64,000 nucleotides of DNA, from the IMG/VR virus record IMGVR_UViG_3300028025_004880. One strand, given 5' to 3'. The DNA comes from a virus (Duplodnaviria > Heunggongvirae > Uroviricota > Caudoviricetes). Shown here piece after piece: positions 12,035 to 62,700 of the stretch. Positions within the stretch are counted from its first letter, which is position 1. Each line of letters starts with the position of its first letter. Below the pieces are notes generated by a model. That model was not told where the DNA came from. It did no database searches and saw only the letters and a program-made list of their open reading frames with translations. Position numbers and translations under genes: made by a program.

Positions 12035-14587
12035 ATGTCTCTTGTAAAAACTAAAGTTTCAACTGCAGTTTCAAAACAAACTCCCCAGTTTGTAAGAGAA
12101 GACCATGAGACATTCATCAGTTTCTTAGAAGCATATTATGAGTGGTTAGAGCAAGAGTATAAAACTAGAGAATTAGAAAACATTCGAGATGTTGATGCAA
12201 CTCTTGATGAGTTTGTTGCTAATTTTAAAAACGAGTTACTGAACCAATTACCCGATTTCGCAATAACTGATAAGCGTTATCTGGCTAAAGTTATTCAAGA
12301 CGTATATCGTTCTAAAGGTACTGCGAAATCTTATGAATTTTTATTCAGAGCAGTGTTCAACGAAACACCTACATTATATTTTCCTAAAGTAGATTTACTG
12401 CGTGTCTCTGACGGTAAATACAGTCAAAAATCAATTTTACGTGTTGCCCCAAAATCCGCATTAACAGGGGATCCATTAAATTATTTGTCTCAAACTATTG
12501 TTCAGTATGATAATAATGGTAATGTTGTATCTTCGGCAAGAGTTGAGAATGTTGTGGCTGAACAAACAACAAGTGGATTAATATACAATTTAACACTTAA
12601 CGCAGATTCTATTATTGGCACATTTAGTCCAGGAATTGATGTTGAAGGTAGTAGTAACTCAAATTCTGGTCCATCGGTAATCATATCAACTGTAAAAACA
12701 GGTGTTACAAGTTTCCAAATAATTGATGGTGGTACTTATGCTTCAGTCGGCGATCCTGTTTCAGTTATTGCTGGTGTTGGTACTGGTGCAACAGTTGAAG
12801 TGGCAGAAGTATTTAATAATGGATCTGTTACAGAGATTATTATTGACGATCCTGGTAAAGATTACTCAGTCGGTCAAGAACTAATTTTTAATAACACCAA
12901 TACAGGTGGTGCATCTTCTAACCCTCTTGTTTCAGCGAGAGCTGTCATTTCAGAGGTAACAGGAACTGGTGGAATTAAAGCCATCAAATTGTTATCTGGT
13001 GGAAATTTTTATACAAAACTACCAATAGTCTCGGGACCAGTTCTACCACCAGTTGTTCCACCTCTCACTACTGGTGGTGCTGTGCTGTTAGCATCTTCCA
13101 ATAATATTGGTAAAATTACCAAATTACAAGTTTCAACTTTTGGACTAGATTATGAAAGTCCACCAATTTGCGTACCACCACTATCAGTTTTATTGACAGA
13201 CGTAAGCGAATTTTCTATTGGCGAAATTATACGTGGCGAACCACAAACCTTTTCTAAAGAAGATCTCGATGAACTGCTATTAGAATCAGGTGATAGATTT
13301 TTACTTGAATCACAGCAAGCACCAGAAGGTGTTTTGGTCGCAGCCGATACGGTAAGAAACCTTTACAAATTATTTCCTGTGTCGGATAGATTTGGTTATA
13401 TTCTTGAAGATGGCTCAGGTGCACTAACTACTGAAAGTGGTGACCAATTTGTTACTGAGGGATCTGCTAAATTTTTGAAGAACATGACTGTTAAAGGTTA
13501 TGGAACAAATGGCATAAACCCTTCAGGCTCACAAGGTAAACTTAGTGCAATCGCTCAAGCTGAGATAAAGGGTAACATTAGTACTGTTGGTGTTACGCAA
13601 GGCACGTTTTTAAATGCTGATGGAAAAATATCTGAAGCATCTAAACGTGTTCAGGATAGTTACTTCTATCAAGACTTTTCTTATGTTATTAAAGTTGGTC
13701 AATCAATTGACAAGTATCGAAGCATCGTTAGAAAATTATTACACCCAATAGGCTTGGCATTATTTGGTGAAGTAGCGATTCAATCTGTTGCTCCTGTTAA
13801 ATCGCAACTTTTTGCTGGCGCTCGAATACAGCTTCTTGGTCATGTGCTGGCAGCACTTATTAATGCTAAGATGAAAGCAGTAGGTAACTACCGAACAAAT
13901 AGTGAGCAATTTAATATAAACAAAGAACAAGTTACGTTATTCTTAGAAGATTTTGTAGCTTCTATTCTTTCATTATCTGTTTCTACTTCTGAGTTCTTAC
14001 CAACTATCAATTTCCCAAATCTAACACCTGCAGAGGTAAACCTATTAGATCTAAGAGCATTGACAAAACAAGATGTAGAAACTATTATTCTACAACAATT
14101 AAAACTTACAAAAGTTCAAACCAAGCCCAGCTATTATGAAAAGGAATTAGAAGTAAATCCAGATAGAACTGATGCGACAATTAAATTGGGTAACAGACTA
14201 AACTGGTTAGAAAAATGGAAATTTACATTTGCTCCATATGTGGCTGGCAGCAAAGGGAGCATTCAGGTTTATAAGGGTGATTGGGTTCAACCATATCCTG
14301 GATTAAACAACAATTACTGGACTATTGGTAGCACACAAATTAAAGATTTCGGAGATATAACGATCTCCGACGTTATAAATAACCCTAATAGAAGAGTAAA
14401 TCTTGCGTTCGAATCATTCATCGATGTAGTCGCTTTACCAAGGGGTGCTATTACATTCGATAAGATAACTGGTGGACATTCATTCGACAACAACTTGGCA
14501 TACCGATTTGATGCTGATTCAATTGAACTTGACAATACTGCATATTCAATGGACAACAATAAAATCAAATTCGACAATCTAACATAA
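12035..14587 (+). CDS. gp7: baseplate wedge initiator gp7-like
   Basis: 850 aa ORF between the gp6-like gene and a well-supported gp8. Assignment by synteny and size. Confidence 0.5.
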   Translation: MSLVKTKVSTAVSKQTPQFVREDHETFISFLEAYYEWLEQEYKTRELENIRDVDATLDEFVANFKNELLNQLPDFAITDKRYLAKVIQDVYRSKGTAKSYEFLFRAVFNETPTLYFPKVDLLRVSDGKYSQKSILRVAPKSALTGDPLNYLSQTIVQYDNNGNVVSSARVENVVAEQTTSGLIYNLTLNADSIIGTFSPGIDVEGSSNSNSGPSVIISTVKTGVTSFQIIDGGTYASVGDPVSVIAGVGTGATVEVAEVFNNGSVTEIIIDDPGKDYSVGQELIFNNTNTGGASSNPLVSARAVISEVTGTGGIKAIKLLSGGNFYTKLPIVSGPVLPPVVPPLTTGGAVLLASSNNIGKITKLQVSTFGLDYESPPICVPPLSVLLTDVSEFSIGEIIRGEPQTFSKEDLDELLLESGDRFLLESQQAPEGVLVAADTVRNLYKLFPVSDRFGYILEDGSGALTTESGDQFVTEGSAKFLKNMTVKGYGTNGINPSGSQGKLSAIAQAEIKGNISTVGVTQGTFLNADGKISEASKRVQDSYFYQDFSYVIKVGQSIDKYRSIVRKLLHPIGLALFGEVAIQSVAPVKSQLFAGARIQLLGHVLAALINAKMKAVGNYRTNSEQFNINKEQVTLFLEDFVASILSLSVSTSEFLPTINFPNLTPAEVNLLDLRALTKQDVETIILQQLKLTKVQTKPSYYEKELEVNPDRTDATIKLGNRLNWLEKWKFTFAPYVAGSKGSIQVYKGDWVQPYPGLNNNYWTIGSTQIKDFGDITISDVINNPNRRVNLAFESFIDVVALPRGAITFDKITGGHSFDNNLAYRFDADSIELDNTAYSMDNNKIKFDNLT

Positions 14588-55889: not shown

Positions 55890-57598
55890 TTTTACTAAAA
55901 AGCGTACAGTGGAAAAACTTCTTATCAACTGGTAACTCCGAAAATAAAGTCCTATTAAACAGATCGCCTTCAACATTGATTGTTGGAAAAAATGGCGAAG
56001 GTAAATCTACTATACTTGATGCCCTGTGTTTTGGTCTTTTCGGTAAACCATTTCGTAATGTAAATAAGAACCAATTAATCAACAGTATAAATTTAAAAAA
56101 CACTGTTGTTGAAATTGAGTTTAGCGTTGGATCAACTGAGTATAAAATAATTCGTGGTATCAAACCAAATATCTTTGAGATCTATCAAGCATCTACTTTA
56201 CTCAATCAAGACTCTGCATCAAAAGATTATCAAAAAATCCTTGAACAGCAGATCCTAAAATTAAACTATAAAACATTCACTCAAGTAGTCATATTGGGGA
56301 GCGCATCGTTTGTTCCTTTTATGCAACTACCATCGACACAGCGCAAGGATGTGATTGAAGATATTTTGGATATTCGTATCTTCTCAACAATGAACACGCT
56401 ACTAAAAGACAAAGCATCTAAATCTAAGATGGAGTTGATAAACGTAGATAGTGCTATCGCAAAATCAAGAGTGGAAGTTGAGTCTCAACAGAAACTCATT
56501 AAGACGCTGGTTCAGTCTAAACAAGAATATCTGTTGTCAGTGCAACAAAAGATTACATCTAACAATGATCAGATAGCCAAGATTTCTTTAGATATCAGCG
56601 CAACAAATGAAAAGATCAAAACTCTTCGCGATAGCATAGCTGATTGTACTCAGGTTGAAGAAGGTATCGAAAAGTTGCTCAATTCTTTGAATAGAAAAAA
56701 AGAAAAGAACTCTGAGATTGTTACAAACATAGACTTCTTTGAGAGCAATGATAATTGTCCATCATGCGCACAAAATATACCGCATGAGCATAAGCAATCT
56801 ATCGTTGAAACTATGCGTAACGAAACCCAAAACAATAAAGAATTTATTGAGAAAGTGGATACTGCTCTTTCTGGGATGCGCCAACGTATGGCTGAGATCA
56901 AAAAAGTTCAAGATGAAATTATGAAACTTACAACTGAGGTTTCTTCATTCAACTCATCGATTACCTTGTTAAACACACAGAACTCATCATACCAAACCGA
57001 GATAACAGGTGCCAACGAAAACACATCAAACATCGATGAGGAAAAGACTAAGTTAAAACAACTTGCTTCCACAGCACTTGAAAACATAGAGTTGAAAACA
57101 GCCATCTTAGAACAAAGAAATCTAGAAGAAGTTGCAGCAACATTGTTGAAAGACACTGGTATTAAAACTGCAATCATTCGTGAGTATTTACCTGCGATGA
57201 ATAAGATGATCAACATGTATTTACAAGCGATGGACTTCTTTGTGCACTTTGAACTTGATGAATCCTTTAATGAAATTATCAAGTCACGCTATCGCGATGA
57301 GTTTACCTATGCAAGTTTCTCTGAAGGTGAGAAAATGCGTATCGATCTTGCGATCTTATTCACTTGGCGCCAAATCGCTAAGATGAAGAACTCTGTCAAC
57401 ACAAACTTACTTGTGCTTGATGAGATCTTCGATTCATCCCTTGACGCATCGGGAACTGACTACTTCCTCAATGTCATGACACATCTGGGCGAAAACACCA
57501 ACACTTTCGTCATCAGCCACAAAGGCGACCAGCTCTTCGATAAATTCCGTAACGTAATCAAATTCGAAAAACGAAACGACTTCTCAGTTATCGTTTGA
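55886..57598 (+). CDS. gp46: recombination endonuclease subunit gp46 (Rad50/SbcC-like ABC ATPase)
   Basis: N-terminal Walker A LIVGKNGEGKSTILDALCFGLFG, a central coiled-coil with a CPSC zinc hook (NDNCPSCAQN), C-terminal signature FSEGEKMRIDLAILF and Walker B/D-loop LLVLDEIFDSSLD. Confidence 0.9.
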   Translation: MILLKSVQWKNFLSTGNSENKVLLNRSPSTLIVGKNGEGKSTILDALCFGLFGKPFRNVNKNQLINSINLKNTVVEIEFSVGSTEYKIIRGIKPNIFEIYQASTLLNQDSASKDYQKILEQQILKLNYKTFTQVVILGSASFVPFMQLPSTQRKDVIEDILDIRIFSTMNTLLKDKASKSKMELINVDSAIAKSRVEVESQQKLIKTLVQSKQEYLLSVQQKITSNNDQIAKISLDISATNEKIKTLRDSIADCTQVEEGIEKLLNSLNRKKEKNSEIVTNIDFFESNDNCPSCAQNIPHEHKQSIVETMRNETQNNKEFIEKVDTALSGMRQRMAEIKKVQDEIMKLTTEVSSFNSSITLLNTQNSSYQTEITGANENTSNIDEEKTKLKQLASTALENIELKTAILEQRNLEEVAATLLKDTGIKTAIIREYLPAMNKMINMYLQAMDFFVHFELDESFNEIIKSRYRDEFTYASFSEGEKMRIDLAILFTWRQIAKMKNSVNTNLLVLDEIFDSSLDASGTDYFLNVMTHLGENTNTFVISHKGDQLFDKFRNVIKFEKRNDFSVIV

Positions 57599-57623
57599 CA
57601 TTAATTTGGAAATAAGGTATAAT
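57595..57623 (+). promoter_or_regulatory. sigma70-type early promoter cassette P1 (TTGACA-17-TATAAT)
   Basis: TTGACA at 57595-57600 overlapping the gp46 stop codon, 17-nt spacer TTAATTTGGAAATAAGG, TATAAT at 57618-57623. GGAG RBS and ATG at 57646. Confidence 0.65.
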
Positions 57624-57893: not shown

Positions 57894-58055
57894 ATGAATG
57901 AGCAATGGGAGTCTTTTACTGACAACGAACTGTATATCCTCTGTTTTGGATATGGTATTGAATCTGAGTGCGTTATGCTTGGATCTCGTCTGATGAATCG
58001 CGGACACGTAGAACTTGTGTTGACGAACTTCGAACGTGATTTGGCTTTCGCTTGA
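57894..58055 (+). CDS. small early protein (53 aa)
   Basis: AGGAG RBS then ATG. MNEQWESFTDNELYILCFGYGIESECVMLGSRLMNRGHVELVLTNFERDLAFA. Its stop codon is embedded in the -35 of the next promoter. Confidence 0.35.
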   Translation: MNEQWESFTDNELYILCFGYGIESECVMLGSRLMNRGHVELVLTNFERDLAFA

Positions 58056-58080
58056 CATTAATTCAAGGATCAGGTATAAT
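58052..58080 (+). promoter_or_regulatory. sigma70-type early promoter cassette P3 (TTGACA-17-TATAAT)
   Basis: TTGACA at 58052-58057, spacer TTAATTCAAGGATCAGG, TATAAT at 58075-58080. Near-identical to P6 (61889..). ATG at 58087 is only 7 nt downstream, so the mRNA may be leaderless. Confidence 0.65.
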
Positions 58081-58086
58081 TATATT

Positions 58087-60354
58087 ATGAATACACACTT
58101 TAACTCAAAAGACCTATTGGCAAAACTTCTTGCCACCGAAAACCTTACGGTGCTTCGGGCACCTGTTCGTACCGCATGTTTTGACGTCGAGTCAAGAACA
58201 TTGACGCTACCGCAATGGAAAGAAATGTCCAATGAGGTGGAAGAAATGCTCATCGGTCATGAGGTAGGACATGCCTTGTTTACAACTAATGAGTACATCA
58301 AAGCCGAAACCTATACACGTTCTTTTCATGGTTACATGAATGTTTGTGAAGATGTTCGCATTGAAAAGAAAATTAAAAACAAGTATCCAGGTCTCCGTCG
58401 CACCTTTATCCAAGGATACAAAGAACTCAACGAAAAAGATTTCTTTGACATCGCAGGTAAAGACCTCACCAAAATTTTATTGATCGATAAAATAAATCTA
58501 TATTTTAAATGTGGCATCAACTGTGGTGTTCGTTTTACACCTGCTGAAATGGATCTAGTCCGTAAGGTTGAGCGCACAGATACCATGGCTGATGTTTATG
58601 ATATCGCCAACGAAATCTATACCTACGAAAAGGGTGAGCGCAAAAAGCGTCGCCAAGAAATGCGTGAAGCACGCAAACTTCTTAACTTGGATGCTGAAGA
58701 TGCCAAGGAAGAACAAGAAGAACTAGAGGAAATGCTCAATCAAGAATATGATGATGAAGCACTTGACGATGATGAATTAGATGACTATGATGAGGGCGAC
58801 ACCTCAGAAGAATCTAGCGATTCTGATTCTGAAGAATCATCTGCAACTCCTCCGTCTTCAGCAGGTGATCCATGGCTCGACAAAGATGAAGAGAAAAAAG
58901 AACCAGAAATAACTGAAGACGATGAAATTAAGTCACACACTGATGACGCATTTTATCGCAGAGTTGAAGAATATGCTGACACAGATACGGAAGTCCATAT
59001 CTATGAACCCAAGATTTTTGATAACATCTATACTGATACAGTTATTGGATACAAACGTGTTATCGCAGAACTATCGGCAGGTCGTGTTCAACGTGATATT
59101 CGCTACTATACTTCAGCTGAAGGTGTTTTTGATAAAGCAAGCCAAGCAAAGGCACTCGCCAGACACAATTCAAATGTTGAGAAATATAAATCAGAAAATT
59201 CTCGTGTTGTGAATTATCTTGTAAAAGAGTTTGAAATGCGTAAATCTGCCACTCAATATAAGAGAACGCAGACAGCGAAGATCGGACAATTGAATACAAG
59301 CAAACTTGCAGTTTACCAACTCACCGATGACCTATTCCGTCGCATACAAATTGTGCCTGATGCTAAAAATCACGGTATGATGTTTTTGCTTGACTGGTCA
59401 GGTTCTATGATGGAATGTATCGAAGATACTCTGAAGCAAGTTATCAGTCTTGCTACTTTCTGTCAACGTGCCATGATCCCATATCAAGTATTCGCATTCT
59501 CAAACGACTATGAAACTTCTTCACGTAGAGATCGCAAATTCTACTCTAGGGAAGAAGTCAAAGCGATGGGTGCGGGAAGACAGTTTATTGCTTGTGGTGG
59601 TTTTAACTTGATCGAGTTGTTTAGCAACAAGATGACAACAAGCGAATTTAATCAGCAAGTTTCTCTCATGCTTGACTCACCATGGCATCTAGATAGGAAC
59701 TATGGACTAGGTGCTACGCCATTGAACGAAGCATTATTGTATATGATTGAAACACAAATCAGCAAGTTTATGCGTGCGAATAATGTTGAAAAATTCTCGT
59801 TCATTACATTGACAGATGGTCAAGGTAGTGGCTTACAAACTGCGGATCGCGAACATCTCTATGACTCACGCTACGACTACGATACACATAAAAACATAAA
59901 AGTTAAAAACTACATGCGTGATCCAATCACTCATCGTGAGTATGCTCTTACTCGCCACAATAACACATCTGTTCTTTTACAAATTATTAAAGACAGATAT
60001 AATTGCTCAGTTGTTGGCTTCCACGTGTTGAGGAATAGCAAACGAAATGTTCAACAATTCCTTGACGATAATGTGTTTTCGGGTAATGAGTCATCTTCAG
60101 ATTGGGCACGGAAACATATTATGATGGATGAGATTCGTGTTGATTTGCGCAAAGAAGGTTTCTACAGTCTTACTGAAACTTCTCATGATGAACTATTCCT
60201 CATCTCCCAAACTAAACTCTCAATCGATGAGGGCGAACTTGAAGTCAAAGACAATATGAACTCCAAAGCGATTGCAAAGCAGTTTGAGAAGTATATGAAT
60301 GTGAAGAAAACCAGTCGTATCCTGTTGAACCGATTTGTGGGGTTGGTGGCTTAA
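58087..60354 (+). CDS. HExxH metallopeptidase-like N-domain + acidic linker + C-terminal von Willebrand factor A (vWA) domain protein. Resembles the DUF2201-type vWA partner of MoxR ATPases and is CobT-like in role
   Basis: HEVGH zincin motif at 58258-58272. Asp/Glu/Ser-rich low-complexity tract at about 58650-58960. vWA MIDAS motif LLDWSGSM (D-x-S-x-S) at 59388-59408. The track ORF from 58036 starts with TTG inside the upstream gene; the ATG at 58087 follows promoter P3. A MoxR-type AAA+ gene lies one gene downstream. Confidence 0.7.
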   Translation: MNTHFNSKDLLAKLLATENLTVLRAPVRTACFDVESRTLTLPQWKEMSNEVEEMLIGHEVGHALFTTNEYIKAETYTRSFHGYMNVCEDVRIEKKIKNKYPGLRRTFIQGYKELNEKDFFDIAGKDLTKILLIDKINLYFKCGINCGVRFTPAEMDLVRKVERTDTMADVYDIANEIYTYEKGERKKRRQEMREARKLLNLDAEDAKEEQEELEEMLNQEYDDEALDDDELDDYDEGDTSEESSDSDSEESSATPPSSAGDPWLDKDEEKKEPEITEDDEIKSHTDDAFYRRVEEYADTDTEVHIYEPKIFDNIYTDTVIGYKRVIAELSAGRVQRDIRYYTSAEGVFDKASQAKALARHNSNVEKYKSENSRVVNYLVKEFEMRKSATQYKRTQTAKIGQLNTSKLAVYQLTDDLFRRIQIVPDAKNHGMMFLLDWSGSMMECIEDTLKQVISLATFCQRAMIPYQVFAFSNDYETSSRRDRKFYSREEVKAMGAGRQFIACGGFNLIELFSNKMTTSEFNQQVSLMLDSPWHLDRNYGLGATPLNEALLYMIETQISKFMRANNVEKFSFITLTDGQGSGLQTADREHLYDSRYDYDTHKNIKVKNYMRDPITHREYALTRHNNTSVLLQIIKDRYNCSVVGFHVLRNSKRNVQQFLDDNVFSGNESSSDWARKHIMMDEIRVDLRKEGFYSLTETSHDELFLISQTKLSIDEGELEVKDNMNSKAIAKQFEKYMNVKKTSRILLNRFVGLVA

Positions 60355-60393: not shown

Positions 60394-60422
60394 TTGACTT
60401 TAATTTGGAAATAAGATATAAT
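60394..60422 (+). promoter_or_regulatory. sigma70-type early promoter cassette P4 (TTGACT-17-TATAAT)
   Basis: AAAGTGCTTGACTTTAATTTGGAAATAAGATATAAT is near-identical to P1 over about 30 nt. TATAAT at 60417-60422. ATG at 60455. Confidence 0.65.
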
Positions 60423-60454: not shown

Positions 60455-60661
60455 ATGTTAGCATATTGCGATTACATGGCAAAAGTCATTAATGAGTCTT
60501 TGAAAAAAGACGCCCATGTCTACGGAACTTTCGTGGATTCAGTGGGTAAAATAAATTGGGATCTTGGTGAGAATGGTGAATTCCTTTCTACGAAGAAAAC
60601 GATGACTGTCGTTGACAGAAATGGGAAAAATTATATTGTAACTGTCCAAGAAATGATTTGA
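60455..60661 (+). CDS. small early protein (68 aa)
   Basis: ORF downstream of P4 with an AGGGA RBS. Its stop codon lies inside the -35 of P5. Confidence 0.5.
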   Translation: MLAYCDYMAKVINESLKKDAHVYGTFVDSVGKINWDLGENGEFLSTKKTMTVVDRNGKNYIVTVQEMI

Positions 60662-60686
60662 CATTAATTCTTGTATGGGGTATAAT
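60658..60686 (+). promoter_or_regulatory. sigma70-type early promoter cassette P5 (TTGACA-17-TATAAT)
   Basis: TTGACA at 60658-60663, spacer TTAATTCTTGTATGGGG, TATAAT at 60681-60686. GGAG RBS and ATG at 60720. Confidence 0.65.
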
Positions 60687-60719: not shown

Positions 60720-61892
60720 ATGATGGCTAAAATTACTGAAGCCCAAATGATCGAGTTTGAAAATAAACTCAAGGAGATGTTTCCCGATGTCGCAACCAAC
60801 GGCACTGTCTCACGGAAAGAACTAATGGCTGTTCGTGATGAAGTTGGTGTTACATGGTATCCGACATGGTTGATGCAAACACAACTAAGTCGTGGTCTAT
60901 ATGCGATTCCTGGTGGATCTATTACAGCACCTGTAACAGACATTAGCAAATGGGATGCGCCTATTAAACAAAAGACGGAGTCTTACGTGGTTGATTTTAC
61001 AAATACTGATTCGTTAATCCCAAAGATCGACGGGAACTATGTTCCTTTCGGTAACCACAAAGATCTTGAACAAATTTGCGCAGCCAAGATATTCTATCCT
61101 GCATATATCTCAGGTCCAACTGGGAATGGCAAATCAACAACGATTGAACAAATTTGCGCCAAGCAAAGACGTGCGCTTATTCGTATCAACTTGAACACCA
61201 TGACTGATGAAGATCAGCTTATCGGAACTAAGACCCTCTTGAATGGCAACGTGGAGATTGTTGAAGGACCAGTGCTAATCGCTATGCGTACAGGATCTGT
61301 ATTGCTACTAGACGAGATTGACGCTGGCTCAGCAAACACTCTGTTGTGCCTACAACCAATTCTTGAGGGCAAACCCTATTACTTCAAACTTAAGAATGAA
61401 ATGATCATCCCTGCTCCTGGATTCACTGTGTTCGCTACGGCAAACACAAAGGGTAAGGGTAGCGATGATGGTCGTTACATCGGTACAAACGTCCTCAACG
61501 AAGCGTTTTTAGAGCGATTTGCGGTTACTTTCAACCAAGAGTACCCTGATGCAAAGGTCGAAAAACGGATCATTATGAACCTCATGAAGACTTACAATGC
61601 GGTTGATGAGGACTTTGCCGATAACATGGTCAAGTGGGCAGACGCTATCCGTCGCACCTTTGACGCTGGTGGCGTAGATGAAACTATCACTACACGTCGC
61701 CTCATCCATATCGTTCGTGCCTTCTCTATTTTCAAGACCCCAAAGAAGGCTATTGAACTCTGTACAAACCGATTTGACGACTCTACAAGGATCGCCTTCA
61801 ACGATTTGTTCGATAAGGTTTCAAGTGGTGAGTTGCAAGTTGAGGAAACACCTCCACAGGCGACCCCAGTGGAGCCTGTTGCAAGTGCTTGA
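60720..61892 (+). CDS. cobS: MoxR-family AAA+ ATPase (CobS-like) with an extra N-terminal domain of about 70 aa
   Basis: Walker A ISGPTGNGKSTT at about 61112-61140. Walker B VLLLDEIDAG at about 61291-61320. ...FATANTKG sensor region. Single AAA+ module of MoxR/CobS size (390 aa). Adjacent to a vWA protein. Confidence 0.85.
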   Translation: MMAKITEAQMIEFENKLKEMFPDVATNGTVSRKELMAVRDEVGVTWYPTWLMQTQLSRGLYAIPGGSITAPVTDISKWDAPIKQKTESYVVDFTNTDSLIPKIDGNYVPFGNHKDLEQICAAKIFYPAYISGPTGNGKSTTIEQICAKQRRALIRINLNTMTDEDQLIGTKTLLNGNVEIVEGPVLIAMRTGSVLLLDEIDAGSANTLLCLQPILEGKPYYFKLKNEMIIPAPGFTVFATANTKGKGSDDGRYIGTNVLNEAFLERFAVTFNQEYPDAKVEKRIIMNLMKTYNAVDEDFADNMVKWADAIRRTFDAGGVDETITTRRLIHIVRAFSIFKTPKKAIELCTNRFDDSTRIAFNDLFDKVSSGELQVEETPPQATPVEPVASA

Positions 61893-61917
61893 CTTTAATT
61901 CAAAAATCAGGTATAAT
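61889..61917 (+). promoter_or_regulatory. sigma70-type early promoter cassette P6 (TTGACT-17-TATAAT)
   Basis: CAAGTGCTTGACTTTAATTCAAAAATCAGGTATAATTATAT is a near-copy of P3. The -35 overlaps the MoxR stop codon. AGGAG RBS and ATG at 61965. Confidence 0.65.
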
Positions 61918-61964
61918 TATATGGTAGTCTTGAAAAACACACTTAACACACAGGAGTTTATATT

Positions 61965-62318
61965 ATGTTGAAATACAGTGATCTTACAAAAGGGCAAAAG
62001 CGTTGTATCGATGCGTTCATCGCTCGTCGTCCCGAACTAGCTACAGCTGACACAATGACCACCAAGGAAGTTTACAACCTTTGGAACGAGATTTATGCTC
62101 AGCGTGGTCAAGGTGGCGCCAAAGTTGGTTACCCAAATTGGCTTCCGAAATACAATCAAGTACAACGTGGCTTGGTTTACTTTCCAGGTCCAAACTCTAC
62201 AGGCGAAAAGTCTGCGCTTGAGAAGTCTAAACTTCAAAAGATTATCAATGACAGTGAGTCAACAGTCAGCGATGATGAGTTCGAAGCAGAGTTGCGAGCA
62301 AACGGAATTCAAGTTTAA
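61965..62318 (+). CDS. hypothetical early protein (117 aa) carrying a copy of the domain found at the N-terminus of the MoxR ATPase
   Basis: TKEVYNLWNEI...KVGYPNWLPKYNQVQRGLVYFPGP matches SRKELMAVRDEV-GVTWYPTWLMQTQLSRGLYAIPGG at 60812-60920. Confidence 0.55.
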   Translation: MLKYSDLTKGQKRCIDAFIARRPELATADTMTTKEVYNLWNEIYAQRGQGGAKVGYPNWLPKYNQVQRGLVYFPGPNSTGEKSALEKSKLQKIINDSESTVSDDEFEAELRANGIQV

Positions 62319-62333
62319 TACTTGAGTCTTTGT

Positions 62334-62369
62334 GGGGATGATAACTGCCATCGTCATCCCCATTTTTTT
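62334..62369 (+). terminator. rho-independent terminator
   Basis: GGGGATGA-(12-nt loop)-TCATCCCC followed by ATTTTTTT. Directly after the 61965 gene stop. Confidence 0.7.
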
Positions 62370-62383
62370 GAAGATGGCGTTAT

Positions 62384-62656
62384 ATGGAGTATTTAAACAT
62401 GTCTAAAAAAGATCTTCTTTTGAAACATCTACAAGCTGGCAAAGCATTTACTGCGAAGCAAATTACTGCTTCTTTCGGTATCGCTAACCCTGCTCGTCAC
62501 GTGCAAGTTTTGCGCGAACAAGGTTACTGTGTATACAGCAACCCTTCTAAGTTGAGCAACGGATCTGTTGCTACCAAGTATCGTATCGGCACACCAAGTC
62601 GCCGTATCGTTGCTTTGGCACAACAAATCGTTGGGGCGACTGCCTTTACACGATAA
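62384..62656 (+). CDS. small DNA-binding protein with a helix-turn-helix / winged-helix motif (90 aa; start possibly at 62399)
   Basis: LLLKHLQAGKAFTAKQITASFGIANPARHVQVLREQGYCV has the helix-turn-helix pattern (hydrophobic helix, G, recognition helix). GGAG lies 9 nt upstream of the internal ATG at 62399. The gene is bracketed by two terminators. Confidence 0.5.
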   Translation: MEYLNMSKKDLLLKHLQAGKAFTAKQITASFGIANPARHVQVLREQGYCVYSNPSKLSNGSVATKYRIGTPSRRIVALAQQIVGATAFTR

Positions 62657-62666
62657 GTGTAATACA

Positions 62667-62700
62667 ACTGAGCATTCTTCCGAGTGCTCAGTTTTGTTTT
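62667..62700 (+). terminator. rho-independent terminator
   Basis: ACTGAGCATTC-TTCC-GAGTGCTCAGT (stem about 12 bp with one wobble) followed by TTTGTTTT. Confidence 0.7.

Follow-up and report, generated by a model that had tools for sequence, protein, structure and literature searches.

A winged-helix-like domain predicted both at the N-terminus of a phage CobS ATPase and in a small protein encoded directly downstream

The locus

We have analysed a stretch of 64,000 nucleotides (called the window here) from a tailed virus of Caudoviricetes, registered as IMGVR_UViG_3300028025_004880, and describe two adjacent genes near its end, namely that of an AAA+ ATPase, CobS, and that of a protein of 117 amino acids. 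The N-terminal regions of the two proteins are homologous, and the shared domain belongs to no described family. Both open reading frames (ORFs) lie where a preliminary description, made from the DNA letters alone, had placed them:

60720..61892, + strand: cobS, encoding a MoxR-class AAA+ ATPase of 390 amino acids
60744..60929, + strand: domain copy 1, CobS residues 9-70 by hhalign (residues 2-67 as the envelope of a hidden Markov model, HMM)
61965..62318, + strand: gene of the 117-amino-acid protein, a free-standing paralog of the CobS N-terminal domain, with 47 homologs and 22 invariant columns
61992..62204, + strand: domain copy 2, residues 10-80 of the 117-amino-acid protein by hhalign

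The genes of this part of the window are all on the + strand, in the order of a CobT-like gene, an ORF of 68 amino acids, cobS, the 117-amino-acid ORF, and a gene of the HTH_39 family. They belong to a block of genes for replication and recombination in an uncultured T4-like phage, and the 117-amino-acid gene of this block is situated between the replication genes gp46 and gp45. The sample names recorded for the source contigs of this region are those of freshwater metagenomes, and no near match of the window DNA was found among isolate genomes.

Homology of the two domain copies

A duplication of one domain between the ATPase and the small protein had been proposed previously, and the comparison of the two sequences bears this out. 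When residues 1-116 of CobS were compared with the 117-amino-acid protein by BLASTP, an E-value of 5e-6 was obtained with 32% identity over 65 columns. The Smith-Waterman score was 68 against a mean of 25 (standard deviation 4.5) for shuffled sequences, with none of 10,000 shuffles reaching 68, and the p-value of this score in a Gumbel distribution was 2-4e-6. Also, an HMM built from the family of the 117-amino-acid protein alone (33 aligned members) placed 20 of the 23 CobS N-termini above all of the 4,600 shuffled controls. Comparison of the two family alignments by hhalign gave a probability of 97.4% (E 1.1e-11) over 62 columns, where residues 10-80 of the small protein correspond to residues 9-70 of CobS. 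Because the alignment spans these 62 columns, the shared unit is about 62-70 residues long with the first helix included, and not about 45 residues as described before. The chief difference between the copies is an insertion of 8-9 residues in the free-standing ones, which is located in the loop before a YPxWL motif.

Chance resemblance between unrelated small helical regions, or an ORF that is non-coding, would also account for a similarity of this kind, and the pairwise identity is indeed low, at 32% in an alignment of 65 columns that contains a gap. Every statistical test above nonetheless rejects chance, by which this explanation is already refuted, and the ORF has conserved full-length homologs. 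The negative control gave the result expected: when the profile of the 117-amino-acid protein was compared with that of the neighbouring HTH_39 family, the hhalign probability was 7.9%, and kinship of the shared domain with the HTH_39 neighbour is hence ruled out. Furthermore, sequences bridging the two classes exist; namely, the N-terminal domains of phrog_1250 ATPases are recognised from both sides, as in the member P0265 with E-values of 1e-16 and 7e-13 against the HMMs of the small protein and of the CobS N-terminal domain, respectively. The objection that the shared residues are merely a common WL/PG motif of low information is not upheld, either; when 1.84 billion protein cluster representatives were searched with a combined profile of the domain, 158 of them were matched at E<=1e-3, nearly all from phages and with few architectures. 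In the window itself, no further copies of the domain were found beyond the two. Homology of both regions is, in our judgement from the sequences, practically certain, and a chance or non-coding origin of the similarity is very improbable.

Predicted structure and family status of the domain

The structures considered here are AlphaFold2 models, in which the 117-amino-acid protein was modelled with its family alignment. For this protein, the block means of the predicted local distance difference test (pLDDT) score are 85-95 over residues 1-80, and the model has helices at residues 9-21, 23-26, 33-45, and 59-64 and strands at residues 30-32, 65-67, and 70-72. A linker of low confidence and then two C-terminal helices follow the domain. 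In the N-terminal domain of CobS (block-mean pLDDT of 79-91 over residues 11-60), helices are modelled at residues 7-20, 22-27, and 32-42 and strands at residues 29-31, 54-57, and 60-62, and the order of the elements is that of the 117-amino-acid copy.

Both copies are therefore modelled with one common topology, which runs through a helix, a short helix, a strand, a helix, a short helix starting at YPxWL, and a beta-hairpin containing RG-h-Y. In a winged helix, helix 1 is followed by strand 1, then by helices 2 and 3, and finally by a beta-hairpin as the wing. Both copies are predicted to be a small winged-helix-like unit, in which the third helix is very short. The residues common to all classes of the domain are a proline after helix 1, a T-x-S/T-R/K-x-E/Q cap, YPxWL, and RG-h-Y.

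No significant match was found between the domain and DNA-binding winged helices. When the BFVD database was searched by structure, the top match (E 2e-6) was an uncharacterised protein of 136 amino acids from an uncultured Caudovirales phage, and the N-termini of a phage AAA protein and of a CobS came third and sixth without significance. Winged helices attached to AAA+ proteins, such as those of ORC/Cdc6 and the MCM8 WH, offer an analogy only at the level of the fold, with no significant structural or sequence match; unlike them, the phage domain is N-terminal and not C-terminal, has the very short third helix, and carries its own signature, YPxWL...RG-h-Y.

That the domain is found in no described family had been supposed in the preliminary description, and the searches of Pfam, PHROGs, the PDB by sequence and by fold, and the literature were indeed all negative. 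The 117-amino-acid protein matches no family of Pfam or PHROGs, the set of domain sequences gives only scattered single-member matches in Pfam (E>=0.047), and the divergent members of the domain match no PHROG. No solved structure is matched by the domain, and no description of the phage CobS N-terminal domain or of the 117-amino-acid protein was found in the literature. In terms of sequence, the domain is a new family of about 158 clusters at 50% identity with several architectures. It is nonetheless of kinds already known, namely winged-helix-like accessory domains and AAA+ adaptors, and represents no new kind of system.

CobS and its N-terminal extension

The ATPase had been described as a MoxR ATPase, and it is of the MoxR class of AAA+ proteins; more exactly, it is a phage CobS, which matches phrog_249 at E 1.7e-100 and has 45% identity along its entire length with the CobS proteins of cyanophages and of pelagiphage HTVC008M. 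Indeed, it possesses an AAA_5 core (E 1.7e-15), a C-terminal lid of the CbbQ/NorQ type (CbbQ_C, E 8.8e-6), and similarity to a solved CobS, that of Brucella melitensis (PDB 9ujv), of which residues 30-315 align with residues 90-369 of the phage protein at E 7e-27. The PHROG profile covered residues 79-372 of CobS only, so that the N-terminal domain was left outside the match. The domain and the AAA+ core are separated by the following segment:

60915..60983, + strand: predicted disordered linker, CobS residues 66-88 (pLDDT <50), with length and sequence varying among homologs

The published structure of CobS opens directly with the AAA+ large subdomain (bioRxiv 10.64898/2026.07.21.739949). Since it does so, and since Brucella CobS aligns only from residue 90 of the phage protein onward, the N-terminal domain is a phage-specific addition to CobS that is absent from the bacterial protein. 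The Pfam family CobS_N (PF12556) was not matched by the whole phage CobS at E<=1, nor by 26 sequences of the domain at E<=10. Phage and bacterial CobS are thus alike in the AAA+ core and in having a partner gene with a vWA (von Willebrand factor type A) domain and its MIDAS (metal-ion-dependent adhesion site), and they differ in that the phage protein adds the domain of about 70 residues and the disordered linker.

The members of phrog_249 in cyanophages and pelagiphages, which are annotated as "porphyrin biosynthesis", resemble the window in their pair of cobT-like and cobS genes and in the neighbourhood of T4-like replication genes. CobS of HTVC008M has the same N-terminal domain (E 1.9e-19 with the HMM of the CobS N-terminal domain), whereas that of S-WAM1 is too divergent for the profile. 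CobS of S-WAM1 (contig L002, 5989-7086) and that of contig L011 (1424-2626) have an N-terminal extension which ends with G-R-G and an aromatic or hydrophobic residue and lacks YPxWL; both extensions are undetected by the domain profile and are likely a divergent form of the shared domain.

The domain on other ATPases

The sequences also indicate that the domain is not private to the pair of CobS and the 117-amino-acid protein. Several proteins of 312-494 amino acids with Walker motifs are phrog_1250 ATPases that have the domain at the N-terminus; these are AAA/AAA_16-like and distinct from CobS with its AAA_5 core. A phrog_11903 protein also starts with the domain. In two contigs, L021 and L022, a phrog_1250 ATPase and a CobS both bearing the domain are encoded in one genome. 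The two genes of L021 (8445-9455 for the phrog_1250 ATPase and 13042-14154 for CobS) are less than 5 kb apart, and each encodes the domain first.

Homologs of phrog_1250 were found by tblastn in 1,255 isolate genomes. Most of them appear to be without the domain, because most of the matches listed start near residue 59 of the query or later. The family occurs in T-even-like phages and is called "thioredoxin" in some records; its members in aquatic phages share the N-terminal domain with CobS but belong to a different ATPase family.

The free-standing small protein

The 47 homologs of the 117-amino-acid ORF are full-length at E<=0.01, and an identical protein is recorded in 68 index blocks of the assembly collection, where the contigs reach 163 kb. 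Given this conservation, the ORF is a real early-region gene under constraint. About 100 clusters of metagenomic relatives share its layout; indeed, most matches of the domain profile are proteins of 95-180 amino acids in which the N-terminal domain is followed by a linker, the length of which varies, and then by an acidic C-terminal motif. The consensus at the very end of these proteins is (D/E)3-E-F-x-A-E-L-R/K-A-N-G-I-x-V (EF-AELRANGI-V). The mean net charge is +4.5 for the free-standing domains and -4.6 for the last 20 residues (tail logo of 108 proteins), and the small protein of the window follows suit with an isoelectric point (pI) of 9.6 in the domain (residues 1-78) and 4.4 in the tail. 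Its motif is located as follows:

62271..62315, + strand: acidic C-terminal motif SDDEFEAELRANGIQV, residues 103-117, with F106, E109, N113, G114, I115, and V117 invariant

Among the other ORFs of the window and of the related loci, none has this motif. When the 50,697 phage genomes were searched by tblastn with the protein of the window and the divergent member P0311, no isolate phage with the small gene was found, and the family is represented by metagenomes only, plus the single Caudovirales entry of BFVD mentioned above. The small proteins are now defined as a family, which is common among T4-like phages of freshwater.

Two other identities of the small protein were considered and rejected. 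Residues 85-117 (62217-62315) weakly resemble the last EF-hand of centrin and calmodulin, but the matches to centrin/caltractin had E-values of 1.1-9.5, that to calmodulin by Foldseek was at E 2.8, and the length of the loop, which is fixed at 12 residues in an EF-hand, varies within the family; these residues are probably not a calcium site. A T4 RpbA-like identity, suggested by the position between genes 46 and 45, was dropped with no Pfam match.

A second free-standing type of 157 amino acids was also noticed in contigs L013 (3705-4178) and L014 (212-685). Its domain is of the CobS-like version and its conserved tail is a different one, EFGLG-D/E-FRNS, and its gene adjoins a WYL_2 gene and not cobS.

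Expression signals

The following sites lie around the two genes:

60658..60686, + strand: promoter-like site before cobS, sigma-70-type TTGACA-17-TATAAT, 12/12 consensus positions
61889..61917, + strand: promoter-like site before the 117-amino-acid gene, TTGACT-17-TATAAT, 11/12, overlapping the stop codon of cobS
62334..62369, + strand: terminator-like hairpin GGGGATGA...TCATCCCC followed by T7, with a folding free energy (dG) of -19.1 kcal/mol and a z-score of -3.6

The small gene had been credited with a promoter and a terminator of its own. A consensus-like site and a hairpin are indeed present, both recognised by pattern only, but no terminator separates the gene from cobS. Because of this, the two genes might be transcribed together, and read-through from the cobS promoter into the small gene is possible. 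The two promoter-like sites are among five near-identical sites of an extended sigma-70 type (57595-57623, 58052-58080, 60394-60422, 60658-60686, and 61889-61917), each of which precedes a gene. They share the form GCTTGAC-A/T-TTAATT...TATAAT, vary in the purines that immediately precede the -10 element, and look like a family of early promoters. Elsewhere in the window, full-consensus promoter sites are rare.

Association of the small gene with cobS

The order of genes was compared across related loci, for which two more genes of the window need to be specified:

58087..60354, + strand: CobT-like partner gene, 755 amino acids, phrog_459 ("peptidase") at E 2.9e-180, with HExxH, an acidic linker, and the MIDAS of a vWA domain
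62384..62656, + strand: HTH_39 winged-helix gene, 90 amino acids, Pfam HTH_39 at E 1.1e-5

In all of the ten loci examined for it, the small gene is directly downstream of cobS. The full order of the cobT-like gene, cobS, the small gene, and the HTH_39 gene is kept in seven of them, of which two contain the protein of the window itself, one was reached via a 42%-identical member, one via a 56%-identical member, and three via CobS homologs alone (66-75% identical). The remaining three are short contigs, each without one flank of the order, which were chosen via divergent members of the family (E of about 1e-9 to 1e-5 with the domain profile). In the second contig of the 56%-identical member (L006), no HTH_39 gene was called. 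A functional link of the small protein to the ATPase, as suggested in the preliminary description, is supported by this adjacency to cobS, which is kept in very divergent relatives, and we consider the functional coupling of the small gene to cobS to be probable.

The small protein might instead be an independent early transcription or DNA-organising factor of the winged-helix type, the acidic tail of which contacts RNA polymerase or the replisome, and its adjacency to cobS would then be a relic of the duplication. The domain is predicted to be winged-helix-like and is basic in the window, and the gene belongs to the cluster of early-type promoters within the replication region, between gp46 and gp45. 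A basic domain with an acidic tail also resembles the layout of phage DNA-binding proteins with acidic C-termini, although this serves as a lead only. The position directly after cobS in every one of the ten loci, those of very divergent members included, nonetheless exceeds what would be expected of a relic in the mosaic early regions of phages, and the third helix is very short in a domain that matches no DNA-binding winged helix significantly. We therefore hold an independent DNA regulator to be unlikely.

Proposed role of the shared domain

Tethered N-terminal domains of AAA+ proteins usually serve recognition. We propose that the shared domain would be a tethered recognition module, like an address, through which AAA+ motors would reach a ligand common to them; this ligand would most likely be polyanionic, i.e., DNA or an acidic segment of a protein. 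The free-standing paralog would then act on the CobS/CobT-like machine as an adaptor or regulator: its domain would engage the ligand of the CobS N-terminal domain, and its acidic C-terminal helix would dock on a partner, namely either the MIDAS of the vWA domain in the CobT-like protein or the shared domain on CobS. The MIDAS is a candidate here because an acidic side chain is the usual ligand of such sites. As for the origin, the small gene may stem from the 5' end of cobS through a partial tandem duplication, or from shuffling of the domain among these ATPases; either event would predate the divergence of the family. The chances of this overall reading, in which AAA+ motors bear a tethered recognition module and a free copy acts on the CobS/CobT-like machine, appear to us about even, and the specific adaptor mechanism of the free protein is more doubtful.

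AAA+ unfoldases and remodellers are known with N-terminal adaptor or substrate-recognition domains and also with free adaptors. By analogy, a small domain is flexibly tethered before the AAA+ ring in phage CobS, and a small protein is encoded beside the ATPase. The phage system differs from those adaptors in that the free protein and the N-terminal domain of the ATPase itself are paralogs and the domain is common to two unrelated ATPase families.

Several observations weigh against the proposed role. In the phages S-WAM1 and HTVC008M and in that of contig L021, cobS is present but the small gene is missing, and the small protein is hence not required for the function of CobS. Indeed, since S-WAM1 and HTVC008M have the pair of cobT-like and cobS genes with no free-standing paralog after cobS, unlike the window, the small protein is an accessory of a sub-lineage rather than a universal component of the module. 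The residues common to all classes could be purely fold-determining and not a shared binding surface. Also, the CobS copy in the window is acidic (pI 5.2, net charge -1), whereas the free copy is basic, which argues against an identical ligand.

The same charge difference bears on a further explanation, which sharpens an idea of the preliminary description and in which the free domain is a decoy that titrates the ligand of the CobS N-terminal domain, and its early expression delays or limits the engagement of CobS. The domains are homologous, the genes are adjacent with separate strong promoter-like sites, and the CobS domain is tethered and accessible in the model, all of which speaks for a decoy. 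The copies differ, however, not only in charge but also by the insertion of 8-9 residues before the YPxWL helix, and in contig L011 the small protein is found alongside a CobS with a much more divergent type of N-terminal domain. Furthermore, a strongly conserved acidic C-terminal motif and a linker are needless for a pure decoy, and the motif fits an adaptor better. A decoy is thus considered improbable.

The proposed recognition module may be taken one step further: the shared domain could be a common address tag that sends CobS, the phrog_1250 ATPase, and the small early adaptor to one target within the infected cell, plausibly DNA or the replication and recombination machinery, the genes of which lie around the module. 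We offer this as a long shot. If it is true, viral CobS/CobT in these phages would be a machine for remodelling nucleoproteins or proteins and not a cobalt chelatase. The genes cobS and cobT have been described as core genes of T4-like cyanophages and are widespread in tailed viruses; they are routinely counted as an "auxiliary metabolic gene" of cobalamin without experimental support, and viral cobST clusters are hypothesised to boost cobalamin synthesis via CobN of the host (PMC8651126). No CobN was found in the window. A handle on the substrate of CobS/CobT would be provided by the tethered phage-only domain, its sharing with an unrelated ATPase, and the duplicate early protein with a docking-like tail. 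The gain is incremental, given that the sharing of domains and the presence of small paralogs as adaptors are frequent among phages and that the mechanism is a proposed one.

Neighbouring genes

The mechanical listing of ORFs gives the CobT-like gene as 58036-60354 with a GTG start at 58036. The true start is probably the ATG at 58087, because a consensus promoter is located at 58052-58080 and the gene calls in metagenomes give 755-756 amino acids. The HExxH motif is HEVGH (58258-58272) and the MIDAS is DWSGS (59392-59406), with an extremely acidic linker at about residues 200-250. The protein has no sequence match among PDB chains, the solved CobT included, from which it further differs in having the HExxH motif.

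Between the CobT-like gene and cobS, the ORF of 68 amino acids (60455-60661) has a promoter-like site of its own and no family match; ORFs of 49-68 amino acids occupy the equivalent position in contigs L003, L008, L010, and L017-L020. The ORF after cobS in contig L021 also happens to encode 117 amino acids and is unrelated to the small-protein family. On the other side of the small gene, the HTH_39 gene keeps its position in nine of the ten related loci, and a homolog is also present downstream of cobS in HTVC008M; the HTH_39 protein may belong to the module as its fourth member. A terminator-like hairpin with a stem of 12 bp lies 3' of the HTH_39 gene, at 62666-62693.

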